This document shows, piece by piece, positions 3,839 through 50,799 of a stretch of DNA of 64,000 nt. The stretch's first letter is position 1; every line of letters begins with the position of its first letter. A model generated the notes under the pieces. The model was not told where the DNA came from, ran no database searches, and was given only the letters and a program-made list of their open reading frames with translations. The DNA is from a bacterium (GTDB lineage Bacteria > Auribacterota > UBA6266). The position numbers and the translations under genes were made by a program. The stretch is taken from positions 1,596,111 to 1,660,110 of the forward strand of contig JALOBK010000001.1 of assembly GCA_023228325.1 (NCBI GenBank). Direction: 5' to 3'.

Positions 3839-3845
3839 TTTTCTC

Positions 3846-15316: not shown

Positions 15317-15330
15317 AGGAAAACGTTTTC
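15317..15330. promoter_or_regulatory. Candidate LacI-family operator: 14-bp perfect CG-centred palindrome
   Basis: 'ggaaaacgttttcc' in the divergent region between PEP-CTERM gene 14632..15291 (-) and the EPS operon; ~25 nt upstream of the minus-strand ATG. Confidence 0.4.
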
Positions 15331-15497
15331 CTGAAGATTAAAAAAAAATAATACGCTGTTTTAATGTATTTAGGGCAATCGTTTTCCTTAAGGCTGTGCT
15401 GTAATATACATTACATGTTCAAATTTGTCAAGGGATGGATATATTATAGTAAAAGGGATGATCATAAAAAGTTTTTTTACAAAAAAACTGTTTTCTG

Positions 15498-21298: not shown

Positions 21299-21310
21299 GC
21301 AAAACATAAA

Positions 21311-22696
21311 ATGAAATATAGTTCGGAAGAACATCCGATAATTGAGTTCCCTGCTTTACTAAAAATCTTTCTAGTATTTATTATGTTTTGTTTTGGAATT
21401 AGCCTTTTATTTTTACCTTGTTACATAGTTTTAGCATTATTTTTTGTTTTTTGTATAACTATTGGGATAGTTTTTAATCCCTTTATTGGGGTTATTCTTT
21501 TTTTAACAACTATTTATCTCCATGTTATGGCCTTTGCACCTGTGGAACTTGTTCTAATACATCCTGCTATAATTGCTGGAGGTATTGTGTTTTTTTCTTG
21601 GCTTTTTCATATTATTATTTTTAAAGATTTTAGTTTTCCAAATTCATCTCAGTTTTATTGTGTTGTGGGATTTAGTTTTATTGCTTTTCTCTCTATAATT
21701 TATCATTATAACGATTATAGTAACTTTTTTTTGGTTTTTAACCTTATTAAAATGTTGATTTTGTATTTTCTCATAGTAAATATGATTAAGACCAAAAGAC
21801 AATTTTATATATCATTAAGTTTAATCTTAGTATTGACTTTTAGCACCGCTTTTTATGGTATTTTGCAATATTTGCAAAGTGGGGGTAGCGGGGATATGAG
21901 TAGGGTTGTTGGTTTTGAGGGTAATCCAAATGCTCTTTCTATGAATTCGGTTTTGATTGTTCCCTGTCTTTTAGGTTTTATTTATTATCAATTTTCTCTT
22001 AAGTTAAAGTTGCTGTTTCTTGTTATATTTCTTGTAATTTTATTAGGTATTATTTTTACATTTTCTCGTGCCGGTTTTGTCACTTTAGCAGCAGTCTTTT
22101 CAATGAGTTTATTTGTGTTTAGTAAGGGGCGTGCTAGATTCATTATGGCAACAATCCTGTTTTTGCTTTTTATGGTTTTATTGCCTTTTTTGCCAGAACA
22201 ATATTGGGAACGTATTCAGTCAATAACTGATTTAAAAGAGGCAAGTATTGTGGCCAGGTTAGATAGCTATCGGGTTGGTTTGCAAATGATAAAGGATAAT
22301 CTGTTGATAGGTATTGGTCCAGGGAGATGGCATGCTGAATATGTTCCACATGCTGTTAAATTATTAGGTATTACAGCATATACAAAGTATCCTCACAACG
22401 TATTTATTGAAGTTGCAGCAGAAATAGGTGTTATTGCATTGATATTATATGGATTTTTGCTTTTTTTTAGCTTTAAAGAATTGAATGAAGCGCGTAAAAT
22501 TTTTAAAGAGAAGAAAGAATTTTTGTTGTCAATAATTTCCCAATCATTCTTAATAAGTTTAATAGGTTTTTTAGTTAACACCACCTTTGAAGCTGGTATT
22601 GGGTTAAAAATATTTTGGTTAATCGCTGGACTTGCTGTTGTATTGAAAAAAATAGCAATAAATATAGAACCTAAACCACAGATAAAAAATTCCTGA
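21311..22696 (+). CDS. O-antigen ligase/Wzy-like polysaccharide polymerase family membrane protein
   Basis: 461 aa polytopic membrane protein with large loop containing 'FTFSRAGF' and 'YPHNVFIEVAAEIG', typical of Wzy_C/O-antigen ligase domain. Confidence 0.7.
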   Translation: MKYSSEEHPIIEFPALLKIFLVFIMFCFGISLLFLPCYIVLALFFVFCITIGIVFNPFIGVILFLTTIYLHVMAFAPVELVLIHPAIIAGGIVFFSWLFHIIIFKDFSFPNSSQFYCVVGFSFIAFLSIIYHYNDYSNFFLVFNLIKMLILYFLIVNMIKTKRQFYISLSLILVLTFSTAFYGILQYLQSGGSGDMSRVVGFEGNPNALSMNSVLIVPCLLGFIYYQFSLKLKLLFLVIFLVILLGIIFTFSRAGFVTLAAVFSMSLFVFSKGRARFIMATILFLLFMVLLPFLPEQYWERIQSITDLKEASIVARLDSYRVGLQMIKDNLLIGIGPGRWHAEYVPHAVKLLGITAYTKYPHNVFIEVAAEIGVIALILYGFLLFFSFKELNEARKIFKEKKEFLLSIISQSFLISLIGFLVNTTFEAGIGLKIFWLIAGLAVVLKKIAINIEPKPQIKNS

Positions 22697-22701
22697 AAGA
22701 A

Positions 22702-23856
22702 GTGAATAAGATAAATATAGCACATTTAACATCTCCTCGTAGGGATCAATTATCCGGTTCAGACAAAATAGTTCTGTCTATAATATCGAGATCAGACAAC
22801 AGAAGATTTAAACACATTGTATTTTGTGTGGGGGATCCTAATTGTAAAGACTGCTTATTAACAACAGAAGTAACTAAATTAGGAGGAAGAGTAGAAGTGA
22901 TAAATTTTCGGTGGTGTCTTGATATAAAATCTGTTCTTCTTTTAAGAAGGTTACTAAAGAAATATTCAATTAATATTTTGCAAACCTATGAATATAAAAG
23001 TAATTTTATGGGGTGGCTTGCCACAGTTTTTACCAATGTAAAAAAAATTGCCCGTATTGGTGGGTGGTTGGGTTTTGGGTTGACATTCAAAAATAGCAAA
23101 TTAGATCGGAAGGCATTTGTTTATGAAAAAATAGATTCTTTTGTAAGGCAGAAATTTGACAAAGTCATTGTTATATCAACTAATATTAGGGATAAACTTA
23201 TTGCTCAAAAATGTCCCCTTGAGAAAATAGCATTAATTTATAATGGTATTGATTCCGCTGAATTTTGCTCAGTTGATTCTGCCAAAACCAGGAGAAGTTT
23301 GAATATTAAACCTGGTATGAAAATTATAGGAACAGTGGGTCGTTTGACTTCTGAAAAAGGACATAAATATTTATTACAAGCTTTTACTAATATAATAAAA
23401 AAGTATCCCAAGACTAAAATTATTATTGTTGGTGAAGGTAATCTTAAACAAAAACTAATTAACTATTCGGAAAAATTAGGTATTAAAGATAGAGTGCTTT
23501 TTACTGGATTTGTGCTAGAAGTTGCCAAATACTTATCGATTATGGATGTTTTTGTTTTTCCCTCATTATGGGAGGGTTTTGGAATAGCTTTGATTGAAGC
23601 AATGGCAATGGGTATTCCTATAGTGGCCACTAGAACCGGGGGTATCCCTGATATAATAGAGAATAATATAACTGGTATTCTAGTAGAACCAGGAAATATA
23701 TTAGAGATGCAGGAAGGAATTGGCAAGCTCTTAACCGAAAGAGATGCATCGAGATTAATGGCGGAAAATGCCAAAATAGTGTTTCATAAGAAATTTTTAG
23801 TTGATGAAATGGTGAAGAAATATGAGGAAGTTTATTTGGAACTAATGAATCTATGA
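22702..23856 (+). CDS. Glycosyltransferase family 1 (GT-B, GT4-like)
   Basis: C-terminal 'FPSLWEGFGIALIEAMAMGIPIVATRTGGIPDII' (EX7E-type motif); GTG start. Confidence 0.85.
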   Translation: MNKINIAHLTSPRRDQLSGSDKIVLSIISRSDNRRFKHIVFCVGDPNCKDCLLTTEVTKLGGRVEVINFRWCLDIKSVLLLRRLLKKYSINILQTYEYKSNFMGWLATVFTNVKKIARIGGWLGFGLTFKNSKLDRKAFVYEKIDSFVRQKFDKVIVISTNIRDKLIAQKCPLEKIALIYNGIDSAEFCSVDSAKTRRSLNIKPGMKIIGTVGRLTSEKGHKYLLQAFTNIIKKYPKTKIIIVGEGNLKQKLINYSEKLGIKDRVLFTGFVLEVAKYLSIMDVFVFPSLWEGFGIALIEAMAMGIPIVATRTGGIPDIIENNITGILVEPGNILEMQEGIGKLLTERDASRLMAENAKIVFHKKFLVDEMVKKYEEVYLELMNL

Positions 23857-24965
23857 GTCGAATAAATAAAATACTAGTGATCTGCTTGCAAGGCATCGGG
23901 GATTTGTTGTTGCTTACCCCAGCATTATCTTTGTTGCGGAAAGGATATCCTAAAGCAGAAATTTCTATTTTAATTTCTAATAAAGCAAAAGATGTAGTTC
24001 TGGGTAATCCCAATATTGATGAACTAATAGTTTTTAAGCATGAAAATAAAAATATTTTTAGAATATTTAAATTATTGAGATATTTATCGAGGAAACATTA
24101 CGATTTATCTATTTGTTCTTATCCAACAGGGTTGCGTTCTGCACTTGCAGGGTATATATCTGGAGCAAAAATAAGAATTGGACAGGATGTATGGCCTTTA
24201 AGAAAATTTCCTTTTCTGTTTACAAATAAAATTAAGGTATCTGAAGTTAAACATGCAGTTGAAATGAATTTGGATCTTCTAAAACCGTTGAAATTGAACC
24301 CCGATATAAGTAACAGAAAATTGTTTTTCCCATTAGAAGGTAAACATAAAGAGTTTGTAAAAGAATTAAGGAAAATAAATCATATAGCAGATAGAGATTT
24401 TACCGTGTGTATTCATCCTACAGCATGCGCAGAATCGAGAAGATGGCCTATAGATAGATTTATAGAACTTGCTAATAATTTAGTTGAGATGTTTAATGCA
24501 ACAATAATACTTCTTGTCGCAGCGAATGAAAAAAATATTGCAAATGAAATTGAAAAGGGAGTAAAAAAACCTTTATTGGCAATGGTTGGTGCTCCGTTAA
24601 AAACAGTAGCTGCTATGATAGAAAGTGCTTCTTTATTTATTGGTAATAATTCTGGTCTTATGCATATCGCAACTTCAGTAGAAACTCCTACAATAGGGCT
24701 TTTTGGAGATACCGACCCTCGGATACATTCTCCATATGGTAGAAAATATATAATTGTAAGATCAAATTTGGATTGCAGCCCTTGTTACTATCCGCATCTT
24801 CATGGAACTCTAGAATGTGCGAAATTAGGGCGTGGTGTAGTAAGGCGCAAATTTAAGTGTATGCGAAATAATTACGAATGCATGAAATTAATTTCTGTTG
24901 GAGATGTACTAAAGGCTGTGGAATATCTTATTTCTGGAGAAAATGAGGAATTAAAGAATGAATAA
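23853..24965 (+). CDS. Glycosyltransferase family 9 (heptosyltransferase-like)
   Basis: N-terminus 'ILVICLQGIGDLLLLTPALSLL' and C-terminal 'GNNSGLMHIA' are characteristic of GT9; 4-bp overlap with upstream gene. Confidence 0.8.
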   Translation: MSRINKILVICLQGIGDLLLLTPALSLLRKGYPKAEISILISNKAKDVVLGNPNIDELIVFKHENKNIFRIFKLLRYLSRKHYDLSICSYPTGLRSALAGYISGAKIRIGQDVWPLRKFPFLFTNKIKVSEVKHAVEMNLDLLKPLKLNPDISNRKLFFPLEGKHKEFVKELRKINHIADRDFTVCIHPTACAESRRWPIDRFIELANNLVEMFNATIILLVAANEKNIANEIEKGVKKPLLAMVGAPLKTVAAMIESASLFIGNNSGLMHIATSVETPTIGLFGDTDPRIHSPYGRKYIIVRSNLDCSPCYYPHLHGTLECAKLGRGVVRRKFKCMRNNYECMKLISVGDVLKAVEYLISGENEELKNE

Positions 24966-26664
24966 AAAAATAAAAGTAGCATCTATAATCTTTCAATTTT
25001 TTACTATTCTTATAAGTACATTCTTTTATTGCGATATGATTGAGGCGAAAGAAAAAATTCTTATTGTGCCTACGCCTTTTTCTGTAGAATTAAAAGATTT
25101 TGATGTAGTTTTAGATGAGAATTGGAGCATAGTTGTAGACACTTCTAATGAAAATAATTTATTTTGCGCTAAATATTTAAGCGAAAAATTATCCCCCAAA
25201 AATCTCCACGCTATATCCATTGAAGGTAGCTTAAACCCGCTTTTTGGAAAAAATATTTTTCTCGGATTAACAAATGAGGATTTTATTAAGCAGCTTGTTA
25301 AAGAAAGAAATATAATAATTCCTCCTGAAATCGGGGATGAAGGTTACCTATTAGATATTTCTTCTGATTCTGTTGTTGTTATTGCTAATAAATCCAGAGG
25401 GCTTTTTTATGGAGTTACAAGTTTTCTTCAGTTGATTGCTTTTGAGAATGAACATTTGAAAGTTCCCGGTCTTAAGATTATAGATTATCCCAAACTCAAG
25501 TTAAGAGGAGTTCATATCCTGAACATAGATTATAATAAGATAGAAGATCAAATTGATATGATGGCATCCATGAAAATTAATACTGTAATATTTAGTGATA
25601 AAAATTATTTTAATTTAGAACAGGTAAGTTTTAGAAAACAAATTAAAGAAATTTTTAATTATGCCCGGGAGAGATTTATTGAGCCTGTTCCGGAAGTGGC
25701 CGCTCTTGGATCTGCATATCCTATGTTAGCTCTAAATCCCCATCTTGCTGAAGGAGTGTGGATTACTGATGAACATTATAAATTTGTAAATGATAAAGCC
25801 ATCCCAATAAAAGCAACAGGGCATAATCTCGTTAATGTTATAAGGACAAAGGAAACAGATATAGAAATTACGAATTTAGAAAAGAGTAAAATATATAAAA
25901 AAGATATAGACTATAGAATAATTGATGGTGTTATATCATATCCATACGATATGACCAATCAGCCGACTGAAATAGCAAAAATTTCAAATGGAGATATTAA
26001 AAACGGTGATGAAGTCTTGATAAGTTATGATTACGTTGAAAATAAATGTGCTTCGTATGCACCTTGGAATATTCCATATTGTCTGTCTTCTGAAGAAGCT
26101 CGGCAAGTTATGTTTTCTGCCATTAAAAATACGATTGAATTATTAAATCCTAAATATATTGACTTGGGATATAGCGAAATTGGAGGAATGAATAAGGATA
26201 GTCGTTGCAAAAGGAGAAATTTAACAAACGCAGAATTATTAGCTGATGATATAAATAATATGTATGGATTTATTAAGGGGATAAATCCAGAGATAAAATT
26301 GATGATATGGGATGATATGATTAATCCATGGCATAATGGTGGAGATGAGAATTATCAGGTGAAATATGGTGGTATTCCAGGGAAAACAGCTCCGACTATA
26401 AATATGATTCCCAAAGACATAATTATTATAGTATGGTGGTATAAATCCAATGATGGTTTAGGAAAAATGAAGCAAAGCCCTGCTTATTTTGAGAAAAAAG
26501 GGTTTCAATATTTGGTTTCATCTTGGAAAGACAAAGAAAACATTGAAAGCTGGGTCGAAATTGCAAATAAGAAAAAAGGATGCTTGGGGATGATTGCAAC
26601 ATCTTGGAATGGACTGGATAAAAATTTCAGCAATATAAAATATGCCGCAAGCTTAATGTGGTAA
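24958..26664 (+). CDS. Secreted hypothetical protein, glycoside-hydrolase-family-20-like
   Basis: 568 aa with N-terminal hydrophobic signal; 'KVPGLKIIDYPKLKLRGVHILNIDYNKIEDQIDMMASMKINTVIFSD' resembles the GH20 N-terminal/TIM-barrel junction, but the expected 'HIGGDE' catalytic pair appears as 'EIGGMNKD'. Confidence 0.4.
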   Translation: MNKKIKVASIIFQFFTILISTFFYCDMIEAKEKILIVPTPFSVELKDFDVVLDENWSIVVDTSNENNLFCAKYLSEKLSPKNLHAISIEGSLNPLFGKNIFLGLTNEDFIKQLVKERNIIIPPEIGDEGYLLDISSDSVVVIANKSRGLFYGVTSFLQLIAFENEHLKVPGLKIIDYPKLKLRGVHILNIDYNKIEDQIDMMASMKINTVIFSDKNYFNLEQVSFRKQIKEIFNYARERFIEPVPEVAALGSAYPMLALNPHLAEGVWITDEHYKFVNDKAIPIKATGHNLVNVIRTKETDIEITNLEKSKIYKKDIDYRIIDGVISYPYDMTNQPTEIAKISNGDIKNGDEVLISYDYVENKCASYAPWNIPYCLSSEEARQVMFSAIKNTIELLNPKYIDLGYSEIGGMNKDSRCKRRNLTNAELLADDINNMYGFIKGINPEIKLMIWDDMINPWHNGGDENYQVKYGGIPGKTAPTINMIPKDIIIIVWWYKSNDGLGKMKQSPAYFEKKGFQYLVSSWKDKENIESWVEIANKKKGCLGMIATSWNGLDKNFSNIKYAASLMW

Positions 26665-26704
26665 GCAGAGATTATAAATAGATAGTTTTATGGAGGTGTG
26701 CAAG

Positions 26705-27748
26705 GTGAAAAAAGCGTTAATTACGGGTGTAACCGGTCAAGATGGCTCGTATCTGGCTGAATTCCTTTTGAGTAAAGGTTATGAAGTTCATGGGATTATT
26801 CGTAGGGCAAGCACCTTTAATACAGGGAGGATAGATCATATATATAAAGATGCTCATAATCCTAAAGTAAAAATGTTTCTTTATTATGGAGACCTGTCAA
26901 ATGGAGAGCAAATTTCAAATATTATTTATAATATAGAACCTGACGAAGTATATCATCTGGCAGCTCAAAGCCACGTCCGTGTTAGTTTCGATTTGGCGGA
27001 ATATACTGGAGATGTAACTGCGTTGGGCACAACGAGAATCCTGGAAGCAATAAGAAGAAGTAAAAAAAACATTAAATTTTATCAAGCTTCTAGTAGTGAA
27101 ATGTTTGGGGCAGCTAAATCACCACAAAGTGAAACAACTCCATTTAAACCTCAAAGTCCTTATGCCTGCGCAAAACTTTACGCATATTGGACAGCGAAAA
27201 ATTATTGTGATGGATATAATGTTTTTGCTTCTAATGGGATCTTATTTAATCATGAATCTCCTCGTCGGGGTGAAACCTTTGTTACCCGCAAGATATCAAG
27301 AGCCGTTGCGGCAATTCTAGCAAAGAAGCAGGACTATCTATATTTGGGAAATCTTGATGCCAAACGGGATTGGGGATATGCTCCTGAATATGTGGAAGCA
27401 ATGTATAATATACTTCAGCTTGAAAACCCGGACGATTTTGTTATAGGGTGTGGGGAAGCTCATTCAGTGAAAGAATTTGTGCAAGAAGCATTTTCCTATG
27501 TTGGTTTAGATTGGGAAAAATATGTAAGAATTGATTCAAGGTATTTTCGTCCAACAGAAGTTATAGAGCTTATTGCTGACGCAAGTAAAGCTAAGGAAAA
27601 GATAAAGTGGAATCCTAAAATTACATTTAAAGATTTGGTCAAAATAATGCTTGATTCAGATATGCGGAGAAAGAGACTTAGGCCAATTGGAGAAGGAGAG
27701 CAAATATTAAAAGTTAAATTACCTGATAGGTGGTGGAAGGCAGATTAA
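26705..27748 (+). CDS. gmd: GDP-mannose 4,6-dehydratase
   Basis: '[38 protein letters not shown]' is near-identical to canonical Gmd N-terminus; GTG start 8 nt after GGAGG RBS (ORF-track ATG 26690 lacks RBS). Confidence 0.95.
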
Positions 27749-27749
27749 A

Positions 27750-28691
27750 ATGAATTTTTGGATAAATAAAAAAGTTTTGGTAACAGGTGGTTCTGGTTTT
27801 CTTGGTGGTTACGTTGTAGATAAATTGATAGAAAGAGGCGTAAATCGGGAAAATATAGAGATTCCGAAAATGAAAGATTGTGATTTAAGAGAAAAAGAAA
27901 ATTGTGCAAAGGTTGTAATAGGGAAAGACATTGTAATACATTTAGCTGCTGTTGTTGGAGGAATTGGGGCTAATAGTAAAAATCCGGCAAAATTCTTTTA
28001 TGATAACGCGATTATGGGTATTCAATTAATTCATGAAAGCTGGAGAGCTGGTGTCAAAAAATTTGTTGCGCTTGGAACAATATGTTCTTATCCTAAATAC
28101 ACCCCCGTGCCGTTTAGAGAAGAGAATTTATGGGATGGTTATCCTGAAGAAACCAATGCCCCTTATGGATTGGCAAAGAAAATACAATTAGTACAAACGC
28201 AAGCTTATTGTCGGCAATATGGTTTCAACGCAATCTATTTATTGCCGGTTAATTTGTATGGTCCTAGGGACAATTTTAGTCCTGAAATATCTCATGTAAT
28301 TCCCGCCTTAATAAAAAAGTGTTTTGATGCGATTAGACAGGAGAAGAAAGAAATAATTGTTTGGGGAACAGGAAAGGCGAGCAGAGAGTTTTTATATGTT
28401 GAAGACTGCGCAGAAGCAATTCTTATGGCAGCTGAAAAATATAACAAGCCCGATCCCGTTAATATTGGCGCAGGTTTTGAGATTTCGATCAAAGAACTAG
28501 TCAATTTAATTGCAGAGCTTACTGGGTTTAGAGGCAAGATTATATGGGATGTTAAAAAGCCTGATGGACAACCAAGAAGAATGCTTGACACTTCGAGTGC
28601 TTTTCGTGAGTTTGGATTTAAATCTAATACAAATTTAAGAGAAGGTTTAAAAAAAACAATAGATTGGTATTTTTCTAATCGAAATAATTAG
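27750..28691 (+). CDS. fcl: GDP-L-fucose synthase (GDP-4-keto-6-deoxymannose 3,5-epimerase/4-reductase)
   Basis: 313 aa; '[11 protein letters not shown]', 'NAPYGLAKK' (YxxxK), '[12 protein letters not shown]', 'SHVIPALI', '[12 protein letters not shown]' match Fcl/WcaG pattern; directly follows gmd. Confidence 0.9.
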
Positions 28692-28701
28692 AAGATAAAA
28701 C

Positions 28702-29334
28702 ATGAAAAATGAAATAAAAAAATATCTTATAGAAATACCGTTTTTTTATTTTATCAGGAGAAGTTGTGAAATAATCTCTCTTGTTGGATGGGTATTGAAA
28801 GGCAAGCCTATTCCACCTCCACATTTAGTAAAACAAAGAACACTTAGAAAATATGCGAATAAATTTACGGTAGATACATTAGTTGAGACTGGCACATATC
28901 TGGGCGATATGATATTTGCTATGAGACGCTTATTTAAAACTATTTATTCTATAGAAATGGATGAGCATTTATACAAAAAGGCAAAGAGCAGATTTTTGAA
29001 ATACTCAAACATTTCTATTTTTCATGGTGATACTTCTGATATTCTTCCCCAAATACTAAAAACATTGTATAAGCCGATATTATTTTGGCTTGATGCTCAT
29101 TATTCTGGGGGAATTACAACAAAAGGTTCTTTGGAATATCCTATAATAAAAGAGCTGCAATATATTTTCGGTCATTCAATACGGAATCATGTGATATTGA
29201 TAGATGATGCTCGAATGTTTGATGGGTGTGATGGACGACCCCAAATTAAACACATTATGGAACTTGCTTACAAAAATTATCCAAATTGTATTTTTGAAGT
29301 TGAAAACGATATTATCAGTATTTGCCCCAAATAA
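28702..29334 (+). CDS. Putative class I SAM-dependent methyltransferase (sugar O-methyltransferase-like)
   Basis: Motif-I-like 'TLVETGTYLGDM' and downstream acidic 'FWLDAHYSGG', 'ILIDDARMF'; 210 aa; located after gmd-fcl. Confidence 0.4.
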   Translation: MKNEIKKYLIEIPFFYFIRRSCEIISLVGWVLKGKPIPPPHLVKQRTLRKYANKFTVDTLVETGTYLGDMIFAMRRLFKTIYSIEMDEHLYKKAKSRFLKYSNISIFHGDTSDILPQILKTLYKPILFWLDAHYSGGITTKGSLEYPIIKELQYIFGHSIRNHVILIDDARMFDGCDGRPQIKHIMELAYKNYPNCIFEVENDIISICPK

Positions 29335-29343
29335 GGCACTTAA

Positions 29344-30141
29344 ATGAATGATATTGAAAGAACATTTGCTGTACTTGTTGTGTCTTGTGATAAGTATGCT
29401 GATTTATGGAAACCCTTTTTTCAGTTATTCTGGCAATTCTGGCCCGATTGCCCTACCAATGTTTATCTGCTTACTAATGAGATTTGTACAAGCTTCCCTC
29501 GAGTTAAAAATTTGCTGATTGGGAAAGATATATCCTGGTCAGATAATCTGCGCAAAGCCATACTTGAATTAGATGAAAAATATATATTTTTGTTTATAGA
29601 TGATCTTTTTTTATATGATTTTGTCAATGCAAGTAAGGTATTGGAAATTTTCAAGTGGATTTTAAAATCGAATCCCAATTATATAAGAATGAATCCCACA
29701 CAAAAGCCCGATAGCCCTTATAATGAATTAGTAGGCAGTGTTTCTAAAGGTACAATTTATAGGACCTCTACAGTTTTGTCTGTTTGGAAGAAAAACGTTT
29801 TATTGGATTTGTTGAAACAAGGTGAGAGCGCATGGGATTTCGAAGTTTATGGGTCTGTCAGATCTGATGTATATGAGGGGTTTTACTCTACATGGAGTCA
29901 TTATTTCCCTGTTATCAATTGTGTGGTTAAGGCTAAATGGCAGAGATCTGCAATTAGGAAATTTAAAAGATTAGGAATTAACATTGATTTAACCAAAAGA
30001 GAAAAAATGAATTGCCCCGAAACAATATTGTCTTACTTTAAATATTTACGATCAGGTTTATTGAATATGTTTCCTGCCAGATATAGAAGAAGAATAAAAG
30101 ACATCGTATTAAATGGAAAGTATGACTATAAAATAAAGTGA
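29344..30141 (+). CDS. Hypothetical protein (possible GT-A-like transferase)
   Basis: 265 aa; no recognisable family from sequence alone; contains 'YIFLFIDDLFL' (DD, DxD-like); embedded among glycosyltransferases on the same strand. Confidence 0.5.
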   Translation: MNDIERTFAVLVVSCDKYADLWKPFFQLFWQFWPDCPTNVYLLTNEICTSFPRVKNLLIGKDISWSDNLRKAILELDEKYIFLFIDDLFLYDFVNASKVLEIFKWILKSNPNYIRMNPTQKPDSPYNELVGSVSKGTIYRTSTVLSVWKKNVLLDLLKQGESAWDFEVYGSVRSDVYEGFYSTWSHYFPVINCVVKAKWQRSAIRKFKRLGINIDLTKREKMNCPETILSYFKYLRSGLLNMFPARYRRRIKDIVLNGKYDYKIK

Positions 30142-30172
30142 ATAATATCAAGCTCACATTAAAAGGGAAAAA

Positions 30173-31315
30173 ATGCAAATAGCTTTTTTGATTCTTCTTG
30201 CTTTAATTATTTTTATTTACTTTGGGTATCCTGTTGTTTTAAGTGTTTTAGTTTTTTTGAAAAAGGAGATAATAAAAACAGGAAATATTAGCCCTTCTGT
30301 AACTCTTATAATACCAGCTTATAATGAACAGGCGGTAATACGTCAGAAGATTGAAAATAGTTTTTTTCTTGAATATCCAAAAGAAAAACTTGAAATCATT
30401 CTAGCGTTAGATGGATGTACTGATAAAAGCAAGGATATTGCTTTAAACTATATAAATAAAGGGTTGAAGATTATCGAACGGGAAGAGAGAGGAGGTAAAA
30501 TAGCAGCTTTAAACAAGGCTGTTTCGCAATCAAAGAATGAAATATTGATTTTTAGCGATGCCAATTCTATATATGAAGAGAATGCGATCATAAATTTAGT
30601 AAGAAATTTTGCAGATAAAAAAGTAGGATGTGTGTGCGGTGAACTTAAATATACACTTAAAGATCTTACTTCTGTTGAGGCGGGAGAAAATTTATATTGG
30701 AAATATGAAAAGTTTTTAAAAGAAAAAGAGAGTAAACTTGGTTCGCTGCTGGTTACCAACGGCTCAATCTATGCGATAAAGAGAGAGCTTTATTCGCAGA
30801 TTGATGAAGATTTAGCCGATGATTTTGTTAATCCTATGAGGGTGTATAAACAGGGATTCAAAGTAGTTTACGAGCCGGATGCAATTGCTTATGAAAAGGT
30901 AAGTTCCAGATTTAAAGACCAGTTTGATCAAAAAGTGCGTATTATTTCACAGGGATGGAAGGCAACTTTTAGATTGTGGGACATTATTTTGTCATCGGGC
31001 CCCTTGCGTATATTTGAGTTTTTATTCCATAAATTTCTACGGTGGATAATTCCTTTTTTCCTTATAGCTATGTTTATATCTAACTTATTTCTTGCTAACA
31101 TTAAGTTTTATCAGATATTGCTACTTTCCCAGGTGATATTTTATGTATTTGCCTTTATTGGCTATTTCTCTCAAAAATGGGGAAGTAGGATAAAACTATT
31201 CTATATCCCATTTTACTTCTGCATGGTTAATGCAACAGCTCTGTTGGCGTTATTCAGATATTTAAAGGGAGGGGAAACAAAAGTCTGGGAAAAAGCCCAA
31301 ACATCAAGGAGTTAA
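30173..31315 (+). CDS. Glycosyltransferase family 2 with C-terminal membrane domain
   Basis: 'VTLIIPAYNEQAVI', 'LDGCTDKS', 'IFSDANS', followed by ~4 TM helices; 380 aa. Confidence 0.85.
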   Translation: MQIAFLILLALIIFIYFGYPVVLSVLVFLKKEIIKTGNISPSVTLIIPAYNEQAVIRQKIENSFFLEYPKEKLEIILALDGCTDKSKDIALNYINKGLKIIEREERGGKIAALNKAVSQSKNEILIFSDANSIYEENAIINLVRNFADKKVGCVCGELKYTLKDLTSVEAGENLYWKYEKFLKEKESKLGSLLVTNGSIYAIKRELYSQIDEDLADDFVNPMRVYKQGFKVVYEPDAIAYEKVSSRFKDQFDQKVRIISQGWKATFRLWDIILSSGPLRIFEFLFHKFLRWIIPFFLIAMFISNLFLANIKFYQILLLSQVIFYVFAFIGYFSQKWGSRIKLFYIPFYFCMVNATALLALFRYLKGGETKVWEKAQTSRS

Positions 31316-31317
31316 AA

Positions 31318-32364
31318 TTGCTTAGCGAGTTACCTATATTTGTATACGTATTTCTGTCCTCAATTTTGGTCTCATTATTGCTGTGTCCATTAGTGATAAA
31401 GTTTGCAGTGAAATATCATTTATTTGATAAGCCCGGACACAGAAAGGTGCACCAGAAAAATATGCCCACAATGGGCGGCATAGCCATGGTGTTTGGTTTT
31501 TTTGCCGCCTTGGCGGTCTGTGAGGTATATTTTCCAAACGCCATCGAAAATTTCTATAGTAAGTTTTGGGGAATGATAATCGCGTCTTTTGTGTTGGTTG
31601 CCCTTGGCATTATCGACGACTTTAAAGGATTAAAGGCAAAGTTTAAAATTTATGTCCAGATACTTGTTGCGATAATACTTATCATTTCGGGTTTCTGCAT
31701 AGAGGAAATAACAAATCCGTTCGGAGATAAAATATCCCTTGGTATTTTCGGTTACATTATTACTGTTTTATGGATAGTGGGAATGATTAATGCCATAAAT
31801 TTTCTTGACGGTTTGGACGGCCTGGCGTGCGGTGTCAGCGGAATTATAGCTTTTTTTCTTTTTTTGTCTTCTTTAAAACAGGGGAATATAACAGCTGCAG
31901 TGATATCCCTTGCGCTTTGCGGCGCTTGTATCGGTTTTTTGCCGTTTAATTTTAACCCGGCGAAAATATTTATGGGCAATACGGGTAGTATGTTTCTAGG
32001 CCTTATCCTTGCGGTAATTGCTATTGCCGGATACAGCAAAACCCAAACCCTGATAACGCTTATAATTCCCGTGATAGCGCTGGGGCTTCCTATTATAGAT
32101 ACAGGTCTTGCTATACTCAGGAGAATAGCCCGTGGCAGGCATATTTTTCACGCCGATAAAGAACATATCCATCACCATATGCTTACCGAAAGGAAATCAC
32201 AGAGAAAAGTCGTCTTATCCATGTATTTCCTGTCATGCTGTTTCGGGATGATTTCCCTCAGCTTTACCGGCTTTAAAGGGATATTTGCCGTTATTGCCTT
32301 GATACTTGTTGTTGCTGTTACTGTTGACTGGATAAGAAAATCAGGATTCCTGAATTTTAGATAA
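31318..32364 (+). CDS. Polyprenyl-phosphate sugar-1-phosphate transferase (WecA/MraY family)
   Basis: 348 aa polytopic membrane protein; 'KPGHRKVHQKNMPTMGGIAMVFG' and 'NAINFLDGLDGLA' motifs of the family; TTG start. Confidence 0.8.
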   Translation: MLSELPIFVYVFLSSILVSLLLCPLVIKFAVKYHLFDKPGHRKVHQKNMPTMGGIAMVFGFFAALAVCEVYFPNAIENFYSKFWGMIIASFVLVALGIIDDFKGLKAKFKIYVQILVAIILIISGFCIEEITNPFGDKISLGIFGYIITVLWIVGMINAINFLDGLDGLACGVSGIIAFFLFLSSLKQGNITAAVISLALCGACIGFLPFNFNPAKIFMGNTGSMFLGLILAVIAIAGYSKTQTLITLIIPVIALGLPIIDTGLAILRRIARGRHIFHADKEHIHHHMLTERKSQRKVVLSMYFLSCCFGMISLSFTGFKGIFAVIALILVVAVTVDWIRKSGFLNFR

Positions 32365-32669
32365 TTTGTAAAAGTGTAAAATCCGAAAAACGAATAGTGA
32401 GGTAAAAAGAAAAAAAATAAAGGAAAGTTGTAACCACAGATAACACAAATTGACACAGATGGCGAGAAGGAAAAAGTATACTTGAAAACAAAGTCTAAGA
32501 AGTCTTTTCCTTGCCTACCTCAAGCAAGCGAGTTATCTATTTTCTAAAATTGATTATATTATGGTATTATATAAAGCTATAAAAGTATGAGATTATTGAT
32601 TTGCTTAATAACTTAGTAATCTTGCCCGCCTATGGCGGGTTAATAACTAACCCCCAGGGGAGATAAATT

Positions 32670-33530
32670 ATGTCAATTAAAGAAGCTTTTAATATCTCAA
32701 AATCTGTTTGGTCTATGTCCGTAAAAATGGCCCGTAAATACCCGGTAATATTACTGCCTTTCTTTATCACGGCGATTTGTAATGCGTTGGCCCTTGCGGT
32801 GTTATACTATTTTCCCAGGAAACCGTGGTCATTGTTTTTCGCTTCGCCCATAAGAAATTTTAAGGGTGAGAAGTTCCTTCATTATCCTTCGAATTTTCTT
32901 GTCCTGCCCGAACTTTTTTATTATTTCCAGATTCTTATTATGGCTACGGTAGGCATAATTATGTTCGGAATGGCTGTCAATCTTATTTACCAGGCGAATT
33001 CCGGTAATGTTCTGCCGAGGCCTGCCGGAAGTTTCAATAAATCCGTCAGGCGTTACCTGACGCTTATAGGCATATGGGCTACGCTTTTTGTGTTGAGTTT
33101 TATAATCTTGAAGGTTCCCGCTATTATGCTTGTTAAGTTCCTTGGAGCCAAACCGATAACATTGATATTGCTCAGGATATTCTTTTATTCCGGATTTATT
33201 TTGGTAATAATAATTGAAGCCCTGCTTGTTTATGCTTATCCTGCGGCAATAATAGATAAAAAGAAATATTTTGCGTCTCTGAAAAACAGTTTTGGTTTAT
33301 CTAAACGGGTTTTTATCGCGTCGCTTATTTTAGTCGCGGCGCCGCGCTTACTGGAGGTAGGCTATATTCTTGCAAGGGGTTATATGATTCCTTTTTTTGT
33401 TAAACATGTTCCTGAGTTAAGTGTAGGGGTAATAGCATTTGGGATTGTTTTGGTGATGTTTACCGATTTTTTTGTAATATGCGCTATCACGAATCTTTAT
33501 ATACTTGCAAAAGAAACAAATGGAGAATAA
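32670..33530 (+). CDS. Integral membrane protein, function unknown
   Basis: 286 aa, ~6 predicted TM helices, no recognisable catalytic motif; preceded by ~300 bp noncoding leader. Confidence 0.5.
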   Translation: MSIKEAFNISKSVWSMSVKMARKYPVILLPFFITAICNALALAVLYYFPRKPWSLFFASPIRNFKGEKFLHYPSNFLVLPELFYYFQILIMATVGIIMFGMAVNLIYQANSGNVLPRPAGSFNKSVRRYLTLIGIWATLFVLSFIILKVPAIMLVKFLGAKPITLILLRIFFYSGFILVIIIEALLVYAYPAAIIDKKKYFASLKNSFGLSKRVFIASLILVAAPRLLEVGYILARGYMIPFFVKHVPELSVGVIAFGIVLVMFTDFFVICAITNLYILAKETNGE

Positions 33531-33577
33531 TACAGATAAATTCTAAATTCTAAGCACGAAATACTAAACAAACTAAA

Positions 33578-33940
33578 ATGATTAAAACTCAAAATTCAAA
33601 ACAATATGACTTGGAAGAAAGAACATTGGAATTTGCAAGAGAAGTTAGAAATTTTGTTAGGGAATTGCCGCAGACTTTAGCTAATATGGAAGATGGAAAG
33701 CAGTTGATAAGATCTTCAGGTTCTGTAGGGGCAAACTACATTGAATCTAATGAATCTTTAAGTAAAAAAGATTTTGCAATGAGAATAAAAATATCCCGTA
33801 AAGAAGCAAAGGAAAGTTGTTATTGGTTAAAGCTTATTAGAGCTAATACTGACAATTTAGAAAAGGAGAGAAAAAGATTAGTTCAGGAAGCACTGGAACT
33901 TACCAAAATATTTGGTTCAATAGTAGAGAAAACAAAATAA
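33578..33940 (+). CDS. Four-helix-bundle protein (family historically annotated as '23S rRNA intervening-sequence protein')
   Basis: 120 aa; 'LEFAREVRNFVRELPQTLANMEDGKQLIRSSGSVGANYIESNESLSKKDFAMRIKISRKEAKESCYWLKL' matches the family pattern. Confidence 0.8.
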   Translation: MIKTQNSKQYDLEERTLEFAREVRNFVRELPQTLANMEDGKQLIRSSGSVGANYIESNESLSKKDFAMRIKISRKEAKESCYWLKLIRANTDNLEKERKRLVQEALELTKIFGSIVEKTK

Positions 33941-34017
33941 TGTTTAGGATATTTGAGTTTAGAATTTATTTAGAATTTTGATATTAGGATTTTGAATTTA
34001 TAATAGGATGGGGGTTT

Positions 34018-37064: not shown

Positions 37065-37306
37065 TGTAATATAGTTCACCTCCTATGAAATTGGGCTGAA
37101 GCGCATAACGTGCTTTGGCCCAATTTGTTATGAGATAAAAATCATTCCGGTGTCGCAAATTCATACATCAAAGCATACCAGATACATACGAGATACAACG
37201 ACACGTGACGATATATACAATATATTATTTCAAAATAATTTGTCGTCTACAAAACAACAATTACACTTGACATAATAGTTATAATATGGTAAAAAGATAC
37301 TTAAAT

Positions 37307-37326
37307 AAATCGAAACGTTTCGATTT
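37307..37326 (+). promoter_or_regulatory. Candidate LacI-family operator: 20-bp perfect CG-centred palindrome
   Basis: 'aaatcgaaacgtttcgattt' in the leader of PEP-CTERM gene 37350, ~23 nt upstream of ATG, just before the RBS. Confidence 0.4.
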
Positions 37327-38174: not shown

Positions 38175-39212
38175 ATGGATATAAAAAAGAAAAACATTAC
38201 GATAAAAGATATAGCCGCAGAAGCTGGAGTCGCTCATTCTACGGTATCCCTGGTAATGAATAATAAGGGGTATGTGAGCGAGGAGCTTCGGACGCGCATC
38301 CTTAAATCCGCAAAGAAACTGGGCTATGAGCCCAATCTTATCGCCCGCGGTCTGATAAGCAGGAAATTTCCTGTTCTTGCCGCTGTTTTCCCTGAAGATC
38401 CGCATTTTTTCGCGGTAGCGTACTTTCTTGGTATTTTGGCCGGTATCCAGGATATATGCCGTAAGAATGAAAAAGCCCTGATGTTGTTCAATACTGATCA
38501 GGCGCAGAAGGATTCTTACTATCAGATTACCCGCAAATGGCTTAGCAGCCTTATGATTATTGTTAATATCGATTACACGAAGAATATTGAGAATAATCTC
38601 CGCACACTGGCAAAAAACGACATTCCGTTTGTTCTTATAAATAAGTATCTGGGGGAAGAAGATGTGAATTATGTCTGCGTGGACAATTATGACGGAGTCT
38701 ACCAGGCCATCGAACATCTTGTGGATCTGGGGCATAAGGAAATCGGCATGATAAAGGGGAATATGAATACCCCGGACGGCCTTGAGAGGTTTGAAGTTTT
38801 TAAGGAAGTTTTGGAAAGGTTTCATTTGAAATATAACCCCGAATGGGTTTTTGACGGGGATTTTACCGTAGAAAGCGGTGAAAAAGCGGGAGATGAGTTT
38901 TTAAAGCTTAAGCAGCGCCCTTCAGCGGTTTTTGCGTCCAACGATGATATGGCAATCGGCATAATGAAAAAATTGCAGTCCCGGGGCTTATCTGTTCCCA
39001 GAGATGTTTCGCTTATTGGGTTTGATGACAATTTGCAGGCCGGTTTTCTGATTCCGGGATTGACTACGATTAAGCAACCGTTATTTGAAATGGGGCAGGA
39101 AGCGGCAAAATTAGTAGTGAACTATAATGAAGAAGAAAATCACAAGACTCATCATATTATCTTGAAGCCTAAACTGGTTATACGCGAATCCACAGCTTCT
39201 TATTCTAAGTAG
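38175..39212 (+). CDS. LacI-family transcriptional regulator
   Basis: N-terminal HTH 'ITIKDIAAEAGVAHSTVSLVMNNKGYVSEELRTRILKSAKKLGYEPNLIARGL'; periplasmic-binding-protein-like effector domain; 345 aa. Confidence 0.9.
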   Translation: MDIKKKNITIKDIAAEAGVAHSTVSLVMNNKGYVSEELRTRILKSAKKLGYEPNLIARGLISRKFPVLAAVFPEDPHFFAVAYFLGILAGIQDICRKNEKALMLFNTDQAQKDSYYQITRKWLSSLMIIVNIDYTKNIENNLRTLAKNDIPFVLINKYLGEEDVNYVCVDNYDGVYQAIEHLVDLGHKEIGMIKGNMNTPDGLERFEVFKEVLERFHLKYNPEWVFDGDFTVESGEKAGDEFLKLKQRPSAVFASNDDMAIGIMKKLQSRGLSVPRDVSLIGFDDNLQAGFLIPGLTTIKQPLFEMGQEAAKLVVNYNEEENHKTHHIILKPKLVIRESTASYSK

Positions 39213-39411: not shown

Positions 39412-39425
39412 TCGAAACGTGACGA
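39412..39425 (+). promoter_or_regulatory. Candidate operator half-conserved with 37307 site
   Basis: 'tcgaaacgtgacga' shares the 9-mer 'tcgaaacgt' with the 37307 palindrome; same position relative to promoter and ATG of gene 39457. Confidence 0.3.
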
Positions 39426-40137: not shown

Positions 40138-40809
40138 CTACCTTCTTCTTTTGGAAATCAGTAAAAGTCCGGCAATACCCGCTCCGAAAAGAGCTATTGT
40201 GCCTGGTTCGGGAACGACACTTGTGGCGCCTATATTGTCTAATCCCCAGCTCACGCTTCCGCCTGCGGGAGCGGAAATAATAAAGTTAGCTGACGCGAAA
40301 TCGCCTGTCCAGATATTATTTCCGATGCCGGAATTGTCATCCACGAAGGCTGAAAATGGGATTATGACTTCCTGCCATCCTGTCCAGTTTATCGGCAGCC
40401 AAATACTTTCATCTTCAGTCCATTCCCCGTATTTGAACATATCTCCATCTTTTTCCTTTAACTCTATCTTCAGGCTTCCCCAGGATGAATCACCTTTCAC
40501 CAGCAGTCGCAGGGAATCATAAGCGCCGAGATCCATCTCTTTGTAATGTCCGGCTCCGCCGGTATAGTAGTTATAGTTATTGTCAGCGGCTTGAATATCA
40601 AGATAGTTGCTGCCCTGAGGGGCTCCGCTTGAAGATAGGGTTGGTGTAAATATGTCTCCGGTATCCGAATATTTCCACCAGTAGTTGGGAGCGCTGCTAT
40701 TTACCCAGTCGATTCCGCTTTCAAAGTCATCAAAGATGACATCGGCAGTTGCCGCTTGTGCTGCAACAGCGAATATCACAGCAAAGCATGTGAAAAACAG
40801 TTTCTGCAT
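40138..40809 (-). CDS. PEP-CTERM sorting-domain protein
   Basis: Signal peptide 'MQKLFFTCFAVIFAVAAQAATA'; C-terminus 'VPEPGTIALFGAGIAGLLLISKRRR'. Confidence 0.85.
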   Translation of the reverse strand: MQKLFFTCFAVIFAVAAQAATADVIFDDFESGIDWVNSSAPNYWWKYSDTGDIFTPTLSSSGAPQGSNYLDIQAADNNYNYYTGGAGHYKEMDLGAYDSLRLLVKGDSSWGSLKIELKEKDGDMFKYGEWTEDESIWLPINWTGWQEVIIPFSAFVDDNSGIGNNIWTGDFASANFIISAPAGGSVSWGLDNIGATSVVPEPGTIALFGAGIAGLLLISKRRR

Positions 40810-40852
40810 AAAACACCTCCTTTATATATAACAGGTTTACAACCGGTATACT

Positions 40853-40881: not shown

Positions 40882-40962
40882 TAGGGTAATGTAAAATTTT
40901 TTGTCGTCGATAAAGATAAATTCATCTTGACAGATGGTAAAATTTCATTAGAATTTAAGTAT

Positions 40963-41033
40963 GAATGTAACCGATTACATTAAGTGTTTTGCCAGCTTTG
41001 TTTTTTATGTCTTAAATATGTAACCGTTTACAT
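40963..41033. promoter_or_regulatory. Two cre-like CG-centred palindromes (TGTAACCG[A/T]TTACA)
   Basis: 'aatgtaaccgattacatt' and 'atgtaaccgtttacat' ~54 bp apart, upstream of PEP-CTERM gene 41060; both fit the TGWAANCGNTNWCA pattern. Confidence 0.35.
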
Positions 41034-41059
41034 TTTTAAATGTGGGGAAAGGGGGAAAC

Positions 41060-41692
41060 ATGAGGAAAGTTTTATTTTCGGTTCTCGTAGGTGTTCTGTT
41101 TGTCCTTCCTGCATCAGCCCAGGCTAATATGCTTGATAACCCCGGGTTTGAATCGTGGGTCGATTATCAGGGAACAAATGTACCTGATAATTGGTGGCAT
41201 ATGTTTGGGGATGCTGATGTGGCAGGAACACAGAGCAGCAATGCAAAGTCGGGTTCTTCATCCGGGCAAATAACTATTACAGGTTCAGGATGGGGAGGCT
41301 GGGGCCAGTGGGTAAGCGAGACTGTGACAGCTGGACAAACTTTTTATGCTTACCAGCCTATTAATATTCCCACGGCGCTGGTAAATGCCGAAGCTGTTCT
41401 GGAGTTAAAATTCCAGGATAACGGCGGCGGAACAGTGGGAAGCGCGCTTCTTACTAACAGAACTACGGCAACAAACGGATGGGAAGCGCTTTCTTTAAGC
41501 GGAATAGCTCCTACAGGGGCAACAAAGCTTTCTTACACGGTTTTGGTGAGGGATACTGCGTCGAGTCCGAACGGGACGGTTTATTTTGACGATGCCTATG
41601 CAGATACACAGCCAGTTCCTGAGCCGGCAAGCTTATTGCTTCTCGGGTTGGGCCTTGCGGGTATTTTGGTATTTAAGAGAAACAGGGCGTAA
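41060..41692 (+). CDS. PEP-CTERM sorting-domain protein with CBM-like N-terminal module
   Basis: Signal peptide then 'AQANMLDNPGFESW'; C-terminus 'VPEPASLLLLGLGLAGILVFKRNRA'; GGGGGA RBS. Confidence 0.85.
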   Translation: MRKVLFSVLVGVLFVLPASAQANMLDNPGFESWVDYQGTNVPDNWWHMFGDADVAGTQSSNAKSGSSSGQITITGSGWGGWGQWVSETVTAGQTFYAYQPINIPTALVNAEAVLELKFQDNGGGTVGSALLTNRTTATNGWEALSLSGIAPTGATKLSYTVLVRDTASSPNGTVYFDDAYADTQPVPEPASLLLLGLGLAGILVFKRNRA

Positions 41693-41715
41693 TTCAGAGA
41701 TTCTTTACATTAGTA

Positions 41716-41748
41716 TGGGGAAGGGGAAATGCCCTTCCCCATTTTTTA
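41716..41748 (+). terminator. Rho-independent terminator after PEP-CTERM gene 41060..41692
   Basis: 'ggggaagggg-aaatg-cccttcccc' followed by 'attttttat'. Confidence 0.7.
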
Positions 41749-41797
41749 TGTCTTGATGCAGATATAACATCATAGTATAATATTAATTACAAATGAG

Positions 41798-42256
41798 ATG
41801 AAACTATTTCTGAAAACGTTAGCCGTTATTTTTTTTGTATTATATGTTTCTACCTGTATGGCTGCTTTCGAATATTTATATACAAGTGATATATCAGGGA
41901 ACCCAAAATCGGAATTTGGAATTGAAGAAACTCCTTATATTCATCTTAGTCTTCCCAGAGATGGTTCAGCCTTTCTTGCCTCCTGGTGGTTAAGCCCCGG
42001 TATCGTGTCACACTTTGACGGAGGAAGGGTATCCGCTCAAAGAGAATTAATAATTAGTGTCAGCGGCTGGAGTGATATAGTGGAAACAGGAAGGTGGAAT
42101 ATCAATGCCCTTTATTTTTTCCCGAATAACGGCGACACAGGTTCAGGTACCGTTTTTTTTGATGTAGTCCCCGAAATCAGCACAATCATTTCATTTCTTG
42201 CTTGTCTTTTTCTTCCGGTTCTTAAAAATTTTCCCCGCAGTAATATTTTGCTGTAA
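41798..42256 (+). CDS. Secreted hypothetical protein with degenerate PEP-CTERM-like C-terminus
   Basis: Signal peptide; C-terminus 'VVPEISTIISFLACLFLPVLKNFPRSNILL' has VPE + hydrophobic helix but lacks the Arg/Lys-rich tail. Confidence 0.45.
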   Translation: MKLFLKTLAVIFFVLYVSTCMAAFEYLYTSDISGNPKSEFGIEETPYIHLSLPRDGSAFLASWWLSPGIVSHFDGGRVSAQRELIISVSGWSDIVETGRWNINALYFFPNNGDTGSGTVFFDVVPEISTIISFLACLFLPVLKNFPRSNILL

Positions 42257-50054: not shown

Positions 50055-50187
50055 TTAGACCATAAATAGTATACACAGATATATTCAATATCGTTCTTAA
50101 ATAATCGATTGTTTTAAACTTGTATAGTAAATTTACAATAACAGAGTATACTCGGGTATATTTACATACAAATTAAGGGAGGTAAAA

Positions 50188-50799
50188 ATGAAGAGAGTTG
50201 TTTTGCTTTCAATAAGCATCTTTTGTTTATTGCTTTCTTCCCAAACCGTAGTTGAAGCGGCAACAGGTGTATATTACGGTTTTGAAAGCGATACGGAGGG
50301 TTGGGCAGCAGAACCATGGGGTTACGGAGTACCTGCTTTGGTATGGAATGCAGATCAGAATCTTCGGCTGGACACCGGTACTGTGGATGTGGATGCAAGT
50401 GACTGGGCTAAAATTCATATCAGGAGAGACCAGGATGAAGCATTGGATCTGGCCGGCAATGCGGCATATTCGATGAATATATTCATTCCTTCCAACGCGT
50501 ATTATGTAAAAGCGAAATTAACTGTAAGGTCCGGTAATAACTGGGATTTCTGGGCAGGACAGGAGTTTGAACTTGAAAATAATAATACATGGCAGACAAT
50601 AAACTGGGACCTGAGCGGAGCGTCAAACCTGAGCGATATCAGGCAGATAGGTCTTGAAGTTCAGGGGTTTTTAGGCGAAGACCCTTCTTTCTATATAGAT
50701 GATGTAACAGCGGGAACAGTTCCTGAACCGTCCAGCATAGCGTTGCTTGCGGGAGGAATCCTGGGGCTGTTTTTTGTTGCGAGAAAAAATAAAGTTTAA
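50188..50799 (+). CDS. PEP-CTERM sorting-domain protein
   Basis: Signal peptide; C-terminus 'VPEPSSIALLAGGILGLFFVARKNKV'; GGGAGG RBS; paralog of 36438..37064. Confidence 0.85.
   Translation: MKRVVLLSISIFCLLLSSQTVVEAATGVYYGFESDTEGWAAEPWGYGVPALVWNADQNLRLDTGTVDVDASDWAKIHIRRDQDEALDLAGNAAYSMNIFIPSNAYYVKAKLTVRSGNNWDFWAGQEFELENNNTWQTINWDLSGASNLSDIRQIGLEVQGFLGEDPSFYIDDVTAGTVPEPSSIALLAGGILGLFFVARKNKV

Follow-up and report, generated by a model that had tools for sequence, protein, structure and literature searches.

The leader of a PEP-CTERM gene in an Auribacterota-like bacterium carries two CG-centred palindromes, which raises the question of what binds them and what this would mean for the gene behind them. 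All coordinates given here refer to the window, that is, the whole 64,000-nucleotide stretch of DNA that was analysed. Proteins identical to those of the window are encoded on a 1.99-Mb contig, JGI 3300037067 Ga0378408_0000001. The nearest relatives are MAGs labelled Candidatus Aureabacteria/Auribacterota, followed by Omnitrophota, and the neighbourhood includes genes for the outer membrane (LptD, an LpxA-like protein) and for an exosortase (EpsH); the host is Auribacterota-like and is not a Firmicute. The initial annotation had described the palindromes as two copies of a motif lying about 54 bp apart upstream of a PEP-CTERM gene at 41060. Both copies are present, at a measured distance of 53 bp from start to start (37 bp between the two 16-mers), and the gene does start at 41060 and has a PEP-CTERM signal according to Pfam. 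The leader and the transcription unit are laid out as follows:

40927-40932, plus strand: -35 hexamer TTGACA, found by promoter scan and invariant in three genomes
40949-40954, plus strand: -10 hexamer TAGAAT, found by promoter scan, with five of six columns invariant in three genomes (TAAAAT in L009, see below)
40965-40980, no strand assigned: operator O1, ATGTAACCGATTACAT, with the core TGTAACCGATTACA at 40966-40979
41018-41033, no strand assigned: operator O2, ATGTAACCGTTTACAT, with the core TGTAACCGTTTACA at 41019-41032
41044-41055, plus strand: purine-rich ribosome-binding site GGGGAAAGGGGG, read from the sequence and conserved in three genomes
41060-41692, plus strand: g41060, whose 210-aa secreted product combines a CBM-like beta-sandwich with a PEP-CTERM sorting signal at the C-terminus
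41715-41750, plus strand: intrinsic terminator, an 11-bp GC-rich stem (41715-41742) plus a T-run

The product of g41060 has a signal peptide and a PEP-CTERM signal (PF07589, E-value = 2.8e-8). Its AlphaFold model (pLDDT 67) is an all-beta structure with a beta-sandwich, and the top Foldseek matches are CBM16, CBM22, CBM4, CBM11 and CBM61 (E-values from 1e-7 to 1e-5). Since the fold resembles several CBM families about equally, it points to no particular effector sugar. Paralogues of g41060 bear CBM_4_9, CBM_11 and Mann_GBD domains, and altogether the window has seven small PEP-CTERM lectin-like genes. The gene closes a classical exosortase/EPS locus, which encodes a secretin, a GNVR chain-length protein, a flippase, Wzy, glycosyltransferases, EpsH and EpsI. 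The part of this locus with the flippase, Wzy and glycosyltransferase genes (about 20000-34000) has a G+C content of 30-35%, compared with 40-43% elsewhere; low G+C is typical of exchangeable polysaccharide gene cassettes. The gene at 41798-42256 encodes a 152-aa secreted protein with no Pfam match and with a C-terminal VVPEISTIISFLACLFLPVL, which looks like a degenerate PEP-CTERM-type anchor devoid of the basic tail.

The promoter of g41060, TTGACA-16-TAGAAT (40927-40954), is close to consensus, with 11 of 12 positions matching sigma-70 and a 16-bp spacer. O1 starts about 11 bp past the -10 hexamer, corresponding to about +4 to +20 of the predicted transcript, and its centre lies 87 bp before the ATG. 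The centre of O2 is 34 bp before the ATG, and its end is 10 bp 5' of the ribosome-binding site. Because of the terminator and of a separate promoter-like site (41753-41781) belonging to the next gene, g41060 forms a single-gene unit. We also considered O1 and O2 as control sites of the divergent gene 40138-40809 on the minus strand and rejected this assignment, since that gene is served by a separate promoter arranged back to back (TTGACA at 40881-40876, -10 ending at 40853) and the operators lie upstream of it, behind the gene.

Two other conserved elements were seen in the same intergenic region. A box TTTTGTCGTCG at 40899-40909, some 18 bp upstream of the g41060 -35 hexamer, is invariant at 11 of 11 positions in the three genomes, and a similar box, TTTGTCGTC, occupies the equivalent place upstream of gene 37350 (37238-37247); a possible role of these boxes is that of an UP-like element or of an activator site common to PEP-CTERM promoters. 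A block ACAGGTTTACAACCGGTATA (40832-40851), located in the leader of the divergent gene 40138-40809 (also PEP-CTERM), has 19 of 20 positions invariant in the three genomes. It includes the odd palindrome GGTT-TAC-AACC as well as ACCGGT, and may be the operator of another, different factor.

Both O1 and O2 are palindromes in which seven of the eight positions per half are complementary, the sole mismatch being at +/-2. The initial annotation had claimed a full fit to the cre consensus and a CG centre for both sites, and this holds: O1 and O2 match TGWAANCGNTNWCA with no mismatches on both strands, and each is centred on CG. It had also named a check, the background frequency of the motif. A scan of about 73 kb (the window and the stretch upstream of it) for the core pattern TGTAANCGNTTACA returned O1 and O2 as the only matches with zero or one mismatch, far above chance, and no such site was found in the roughly 9-10 kb upstream of the window. 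With two mismatches allowed, the window has two matches against 4.1 expected from shuffles, which is at or below background. For the 16-mer with up to three mismatches there are five strand matches in the window versus 1.16 expected, a count reached in none of 100 shuffles. By hand arithmetic, two perfect sites of 12 specified bases within 53 bp are expected about 0.01 times or fewer per 64 kb. A perfect pair at this distance vastly exceeds what chance would produce.

To follow the sites in relatives, we aligned the window with GCA_016933315.1 (L009), whose product is 90% identical, and GCA_028717725.1 (L010), whose product is 79% identical. In these three genomes all 16 columns of O1 and all 16 of O2 are invariant (32/32 jointly), against only 13 of the 38 columns of the spacer between them, and the promoter hexamers are kept at six of six (-35) and five of six (-10) columns. 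To some extent this conservation reflects short divergence time, as indicated by the protein identities, although the diverged spacer argues otherwise. In addition, a separate and more distant scaffold, L097, has a 53%-identical homologue of g41060 behind its own promoter, TTGACA-16-TATATT, with a TGTAAnCGnTTACA pair upstream in a different sequence context. The first site of this pair, TGTAAACGCTTACA, overlaps the -10 hexamer, while the second, TGTAACCGATTACA, follows 37 bp later at the place equivalent to O2. Because the operators are invariant, the spacer has diverged and the pair recurs in L097, it is the motif pair, rather than the surrounding sequence, that is under selection. The comparison covers three close genomes and one distant one, which leaves some room for the idea that the pair is a coincidence or a relic duplication without function; nevertheless, in view of the contrast between operators and spacer, the recurrence in L097 and the low chance expectation, we consider this idea hardly credible. 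The distance between the sites is 53 bp in the window and L009, 50 bp in L010 and 37 bp in L097. Since it differs among them, helical phase is not conserved, and we do not claim cooperative looping or phasing of O1 and O2.

Palindromes in a leader might also act as RNA, here as two 5'-leader hairpins affecting stability, translation or attenuation. Both would be transcribed if the predicted promoter is used, and in the predicted fold each can form a hairpin of 6-7 bp. However, the leader does not fold more stably than shuffled sequences (z = -1.41; 16 of 200 shuffles fold as well), and Rfam returned no family match (the best hit, E-value = 0.82, is to an irrelevant family). The stems, rich in AU, are short. 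In sequence the palindromes follow the consensus of LacI operators down to the central CG, which is unpaired, and the first site of L097 is largely untranscribed because of its overlap with the -10 hexamer. An RNA element is therefore very improbable, if somewhat less so than coincidence.

As to the kind of site, O1 and O2 have the features of standard LacI/GalR-family operators, and such predicted operators are mechanistically ordinary. In a large collection of LacI-family regulators, 1173 of 1303 motifs are even palindromes with central CG and the core AANCGNTT, more than 75% of the sites are located 140 to 30 bp before the start codon, and about 90% of the regulators are local sugar regulators, with CcpA as a global member in Firmicutes (Ravcheev et al. 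2014, PMC4052901). Each of our two sites is an even palindrome in the 14-20 bp range with a central CG pair, is built of the AAnCGnTT core plus flanking specificity positions NT-6 to NT-4, is centred within the typical interval (-87 and -34), and forms a conserved island in orthologous leaders. A conserved, helically phased distance, as expected of a looping pair of the GalR or LacI style, is not displayed by O1 and O2.

The closest known counterparts are the E. coli gal operators OE and OI, bound by GalR/GalS, with a consensus of about GTGTAAnCGnTTACAC; the recognition helix of GalR has V15, A16 and R20. Like GalR/GalS operators, O1 and O2 have the half-site TGTAA(n)C and a central CG, and come as two operators per promoter. 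Their predicted binder would likewise have Ala16 and Arg20, and the presumed logic is again that of a repressor released by sugar. Unlike in gal, where the sites flank the promoter about 113 bp apart, O1 and O2 are both downstream of the -35 and -10 hexamers at 53 bp (37-53 bp in relatives), and without conserved phasing HU-dependent looping is not implied. Further differences from gal are that the target is a PEP-CTERM lectin-like protein instead of a sugar catabolic operon and that the regulator gene is not adjacent. With RbsR/PurR-type operators (gCGAAACGTTTCGc) and with a second class of sites in the window, represented by TCGAAACGTTTCGA, O1 and O2 share the 14-bp even palindrome with CG centre; like sites of the TCGAAACGTTTCGA class, they are positioned between the -10 hexamer and the ribosome-binding site of a PEP-CTERM gene. 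NT-6/NT-5 are C/G or A/A in the RbsR/PurR-type and TCGAAACGTTTCGA classes, whereas O1 and O2 have G/T.

Given the perfect fit to TGWAANCGNTNWCA, the sites could be genuine catabolite-responsive elements (cre), at which a global, CcpA-like member of the LacI family signals carbon status. The lack of a cognate regulator beside the target, in the window as well as in L097, is what would be expected of such a trans-acting factor. However, CcpA regulons have been described for Firmicutes (PMC4052901), whereas this host is Auribacterota-like, with outer-membrane and exosortase genes; its relatives are non-Firmicutes and the window has no CcpA-like gene, so that nothing indicates a host with CcpA and HPr(Ser46)/HPr kinase. 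Instead of many sites before diverse catabolic operons, the motif occurs at a single locus in about 73 kb (about 3.7% of the genome), and near matches are not in excess. Cre is degenerate, while O1 and O2 are near-perfect extended palindromes of 16-18 bp, the type of a dedicated local operator. The earlier cre label loses its force for another reason: the paired motif, usually with a local LacI gene as its neighbour, is also found in Proteobacteria, Bacteroidota, Chloroflexota, Deinococcota and others. Because most of these pairs go with local, GalR-like regulators of phyla lacking CcpA, the fit to the cre consensus does not discriminate and is not diagnostic of CcpA. With a non-discriminating fit, a non-Firmicute host and occurrence at a single locus, CcpA-type catabolite control is unsupported, and we regard it as unlikely. 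A global LacI-type regulator acting in trans is nevertheless conceivable, about 3.7% of the genome having been sampled.

These observations leave a LacI/GalR-family repressor as the best candidate for the binder of O1 and O2, and the question becomes which one. The only LacI-family gene in the window, 38175-39212 (LacI-38175), has recognition residues His15, Ser16 and Leu20 (GalR numbering; TVSL helix), which are kept in its orthologues P0001-P0012; the whole clade has an unusual recognition helix, (H/Y)-S-T-V-S-Leu20. The leaders of the PEP-CTERM genes flanking LacI-38175 contain TCGAAACGTTTCGA (37310-37323) and TCGAAACGTGACGA (39412-39425), and a locus with a 93% identical orthologue (L002) keeps both flanking sites. 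Orthologues with 57-60% identity (L003, L006) are found at the end of GH2_C/GH5-like operons, adjoining AAAGAACGTTTTGA, TAAAAACGTTTCGA, TAAAAACGTTTTTA and AAAAAACGTGATGA, and distant orthologues at the ends of hydrolase operons are followed by a PEP-CTERM CBM gene with AAACGTTT-type sites. LacI-38175 and its orthologues thus go with xxRAAACGTxxxxx sites, and none of the sites flanking them has G at NT-6 or T at NT-5. The half-sites of O1 and O2 are TGTAA(C/T/A)C versus T(C/A)(G/A)AAAC in the TCGAAACGTTTCGA class, which goes with the local (H/Y)-S-T-V-S-L clade; the two classes have in common T at -7, AA at -4/-3 and the central CG. The claim of the initial annotation that O1 and O2 constitute an operator class distinct from TCGAAACGTTTCGA is thus borne out, the classes being sharply distinct and invariant in all three genomes.

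To relate paired sites to recognition residues more broadly, we scanned one genome per species for TGTAANCGNTTACA-N18-48-TGTAANCGNTTACA, which gave at least 120 loci; those listed are phylogenetically non-independent and include no Auribacterota genome. They come from Gammaproteobacteria, Alphaproteobacteria, Bacillota, Bacteroidota, Chloroflexota, Deinococcota, Planctomycetota and others, and 64 of the 120 listed have a LacI-family gene within 300 bp. Among the matches listed, residue 16 of these neighbouring regulators (about 62) is Ala in 56 and Gly in four, residue 20 is Arg in 61 of 62, and Ser16 or Leu20 was found in none. The counts agree with a published code in which Arg20 goes together with G at NT-6, and residues 15 and 16 co-vary with NT-5 and NT-4; the code loses reliability beyond the TVSR group (Camas et al. 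2010, PMC2978694). The distance of 53 bp between O1 and O2 falls on the main peak (52-53 bp) of the listed paired-site spacings.

Centre-to-centre distances of the paired TGTAANCGNTTACA sites among the matches listed (L101-L220) cluster at 32, 40-41, 52-53, 59 and 62 bp, of which the clusters at 32, 40-41 and 52-53 are roughly one helical turn apart; this suggests that placement on the same face of the helix is favoured in general. A scan of viral contigs for single sites gave 79 matches, mostly isolated. Two related viral contigs, L059 (IMGVR_UViG_3300028377_000042, 3372-4037) and L082 (IMGVR_UViG_3300011185_000269, 848-1168), have non-coding arrays of 22 and 8 units, respectively, arranged head to tail in units of 27-35 bp, TATAATGTAA(C/A)CGCTTACA, in which a -10-like box is fused to a LacI-type operator. 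The retrieved stretches of both contigs contain no LacI gene, and the neighbouring ORFs have no family matches. The arrays could be repressor-titrating decoys or iteron-like.

Residues H15, S16 and L20 of LacI-38175 do not fit G at NT-6 and T/A at NT-5/-4 of O1 and O2. Because its flanking sites are of a different class and its recognition helix mismatches O1 and O2, LacI-38175 is a poor candidate and most likely does not bind them, as judged from sequence comparison. This argument is correlative, LacI-38175 being a TVSL protein outside the TVSR group, where the code is weaker. The alternative that it binds both operator classes, serving as one local regulator of all four adjacent PEP-CTERM genes, draws on this weakness and on the T, AA and CG positions common to the two classes, as well as on genomic position: neither the window nor the 10 kb preceding it has another LacI gene, LacI-38175 lies 1.7 kb upstream of g41060, and the cluster order is conserved in three genomes. 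Against a single regulator stand the sharp and invariant distinction of the classes and the absence from LacI-38175 of the Ala16 and Arg20 that prevail beside TGTAA-type pairs. Moreover, its orthologues with 47-60% identity have the same helix and adjoin xxRAAACGT sites, never TGTAAC, and L097 retains the TGTAA pair but has no LacI gene at less than 10 kb from the homologue. We therefore find this alternative improbable, on a par with CcpA or marginally ahead of it. Autoregulation of LacI-38175 was rejected as well, no CG-centred palindrome having been seen upstream of 38175 on reading the sequence.

A tblastn search of the window with the LacI protein returned only LacI-38175 itself, and the 10 kb upstream of the window have no LacI gene. 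Because LacI-38175 is mismatched and no other LacI gene is found there, a second repressor is probably encoded elsewhere; most likely, the binder of O1 and O2 is a predicted GalR-like paralogue (Ala16, Arg20) located elsewhere on the 1.99-Mb chromosome. The earlier suggestion of a second LacI-type regulator outside the window is thus the best explanation at hand. The accompanying hint at combinatorial control fared worse, as the two operator classes never occur together in a leader of the window; because each gene has its own class, control would be parallel rather than combinatorial.

Taken together, we favour the reading that O1 and O2 are operators of a LacI/GalR-family repressor encoded elsewhere, which would place g41060 under sugar-gated control, and we consider this reading probable, though by no means certain. 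We infer protein binding, repression and sugar induction along the following lines. A dimeric repressor, a GalR-like paralogue with an Ala16/Arg20 helix and not LacI-38175, would bind both palindromes in the leader of about 100 nt of this single-gene unit, O1 at about the transcription start and O2 abutting the ribosome-binding site. Without the sugar effector, the repressor on both sites would block promoter escape and elongation, whereas in its presence the PEP-CTERM-sorted, CBM-like carbohydrate-binding surface protein would be made.

Other PEP-CTERM leaders in the window have sites of the same general type. The 64 kb contain 16 AA-N-CG-N-TT palindromes with at least five of seven pairs, six of them in the 910 bp that make up the PEP-CTERM gene leaders; of the best palindromes (at least six of seven pairs), five out of six are in such leaders. 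At least three operator classes can be distinguished in PEP-CTERM leaders, namely, TGTAAC (O1/O2), TCGAAAC and GGAAAAC. The sites in addition to those already described are:

15318-15331: GGAAAACGTTTTCC, a perfect palindrome of the GGAAAAC class in the leader of PEP-CTERM gene 14632-15291 (minus strand)
15374-15387: GGCAATCGTTTTCC, the second GGAAAAC-class site in the same leader
50100-50113: AATAATCGATTGTT, a CG-centred palindrome with six of seven pairs in the leader of PEP-CTERM/Mann_GBD gene 50188-50799

The two GGAAAAC-class sites are 56 bp apart and downstream of a TTGACA promoter, the same two-site layout as at 41060. AATAATCGATTGTT may represent a fourth class. It is mildly notable that the leaders of PEP-CTERM lectin-like genes show such a concentration of LacI-type operators, which belong to at least three classes.

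A profile search of metagenome contigs for g41060 homologues returned eight loci, mostly of Omnitrophota and with a different operator, and no TGTAA site. The Omnitrophota homologues have TGCCCnCGnGGGCA-type palindromes in place of TGTAAC. CG-centred palindromes of the TGCCCACGTGGGCA type are present upstream of these homologues and of neighbouring CBM_11 genes at L012 (about 9080, 9165 and 9940), L098, L222-L224 and L227, and the Omnitrophota cluster includes a different LacI gene (helix ISRRTISRV; Arg15, Arg16, Arg20) and an F5/8 type C protein.

Placing single PEP-CTERM lectin-like genes under sugar-type repressors looks like a habit of the lineage. More tentatively, Auribacterota and Omnitrophota might possess a substrate-inducible 'lectin repertoire' of small PEP-CTERM CBM-fold proteins, each with a strong promoter, a long leader and a terminator of its own and each under a different LacI-type repressor, the TGTAAC class being controlled in trans by a regulator unlinked in all genomes examined. 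It is a conjecture with rather less than even prospects, which counts at least three to four operator classes in the window and another (TGCCCnCGnGGGCA) in Omnitrophota. If it is true, the TGTAAC regulator could be a broader sugar regulator of the catabolite type, of which the phylum has no known example.

O1 and O2 alone are a routine repressor-operator arrangement of a known kind. Among titles and abstracts, we found no literature linking PEP-CTERM to LacI regulators. Within an uncultured candidate phylum, the two sites provide a testable regulatory handle, and they tie PEP-CTERM/exosortase cargo, whose function and regulation are poorly understood, to sugar-responsive control of the LacI type. 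Their presence suggests that small CBM-like proteins may be made only when particular glycans are present. Finally, the clean split of operator classes, with matching and non-matching recognition helices, offers a modest, naturally occurring test of how the LacI recognition code performs in phyla other than the model ones.
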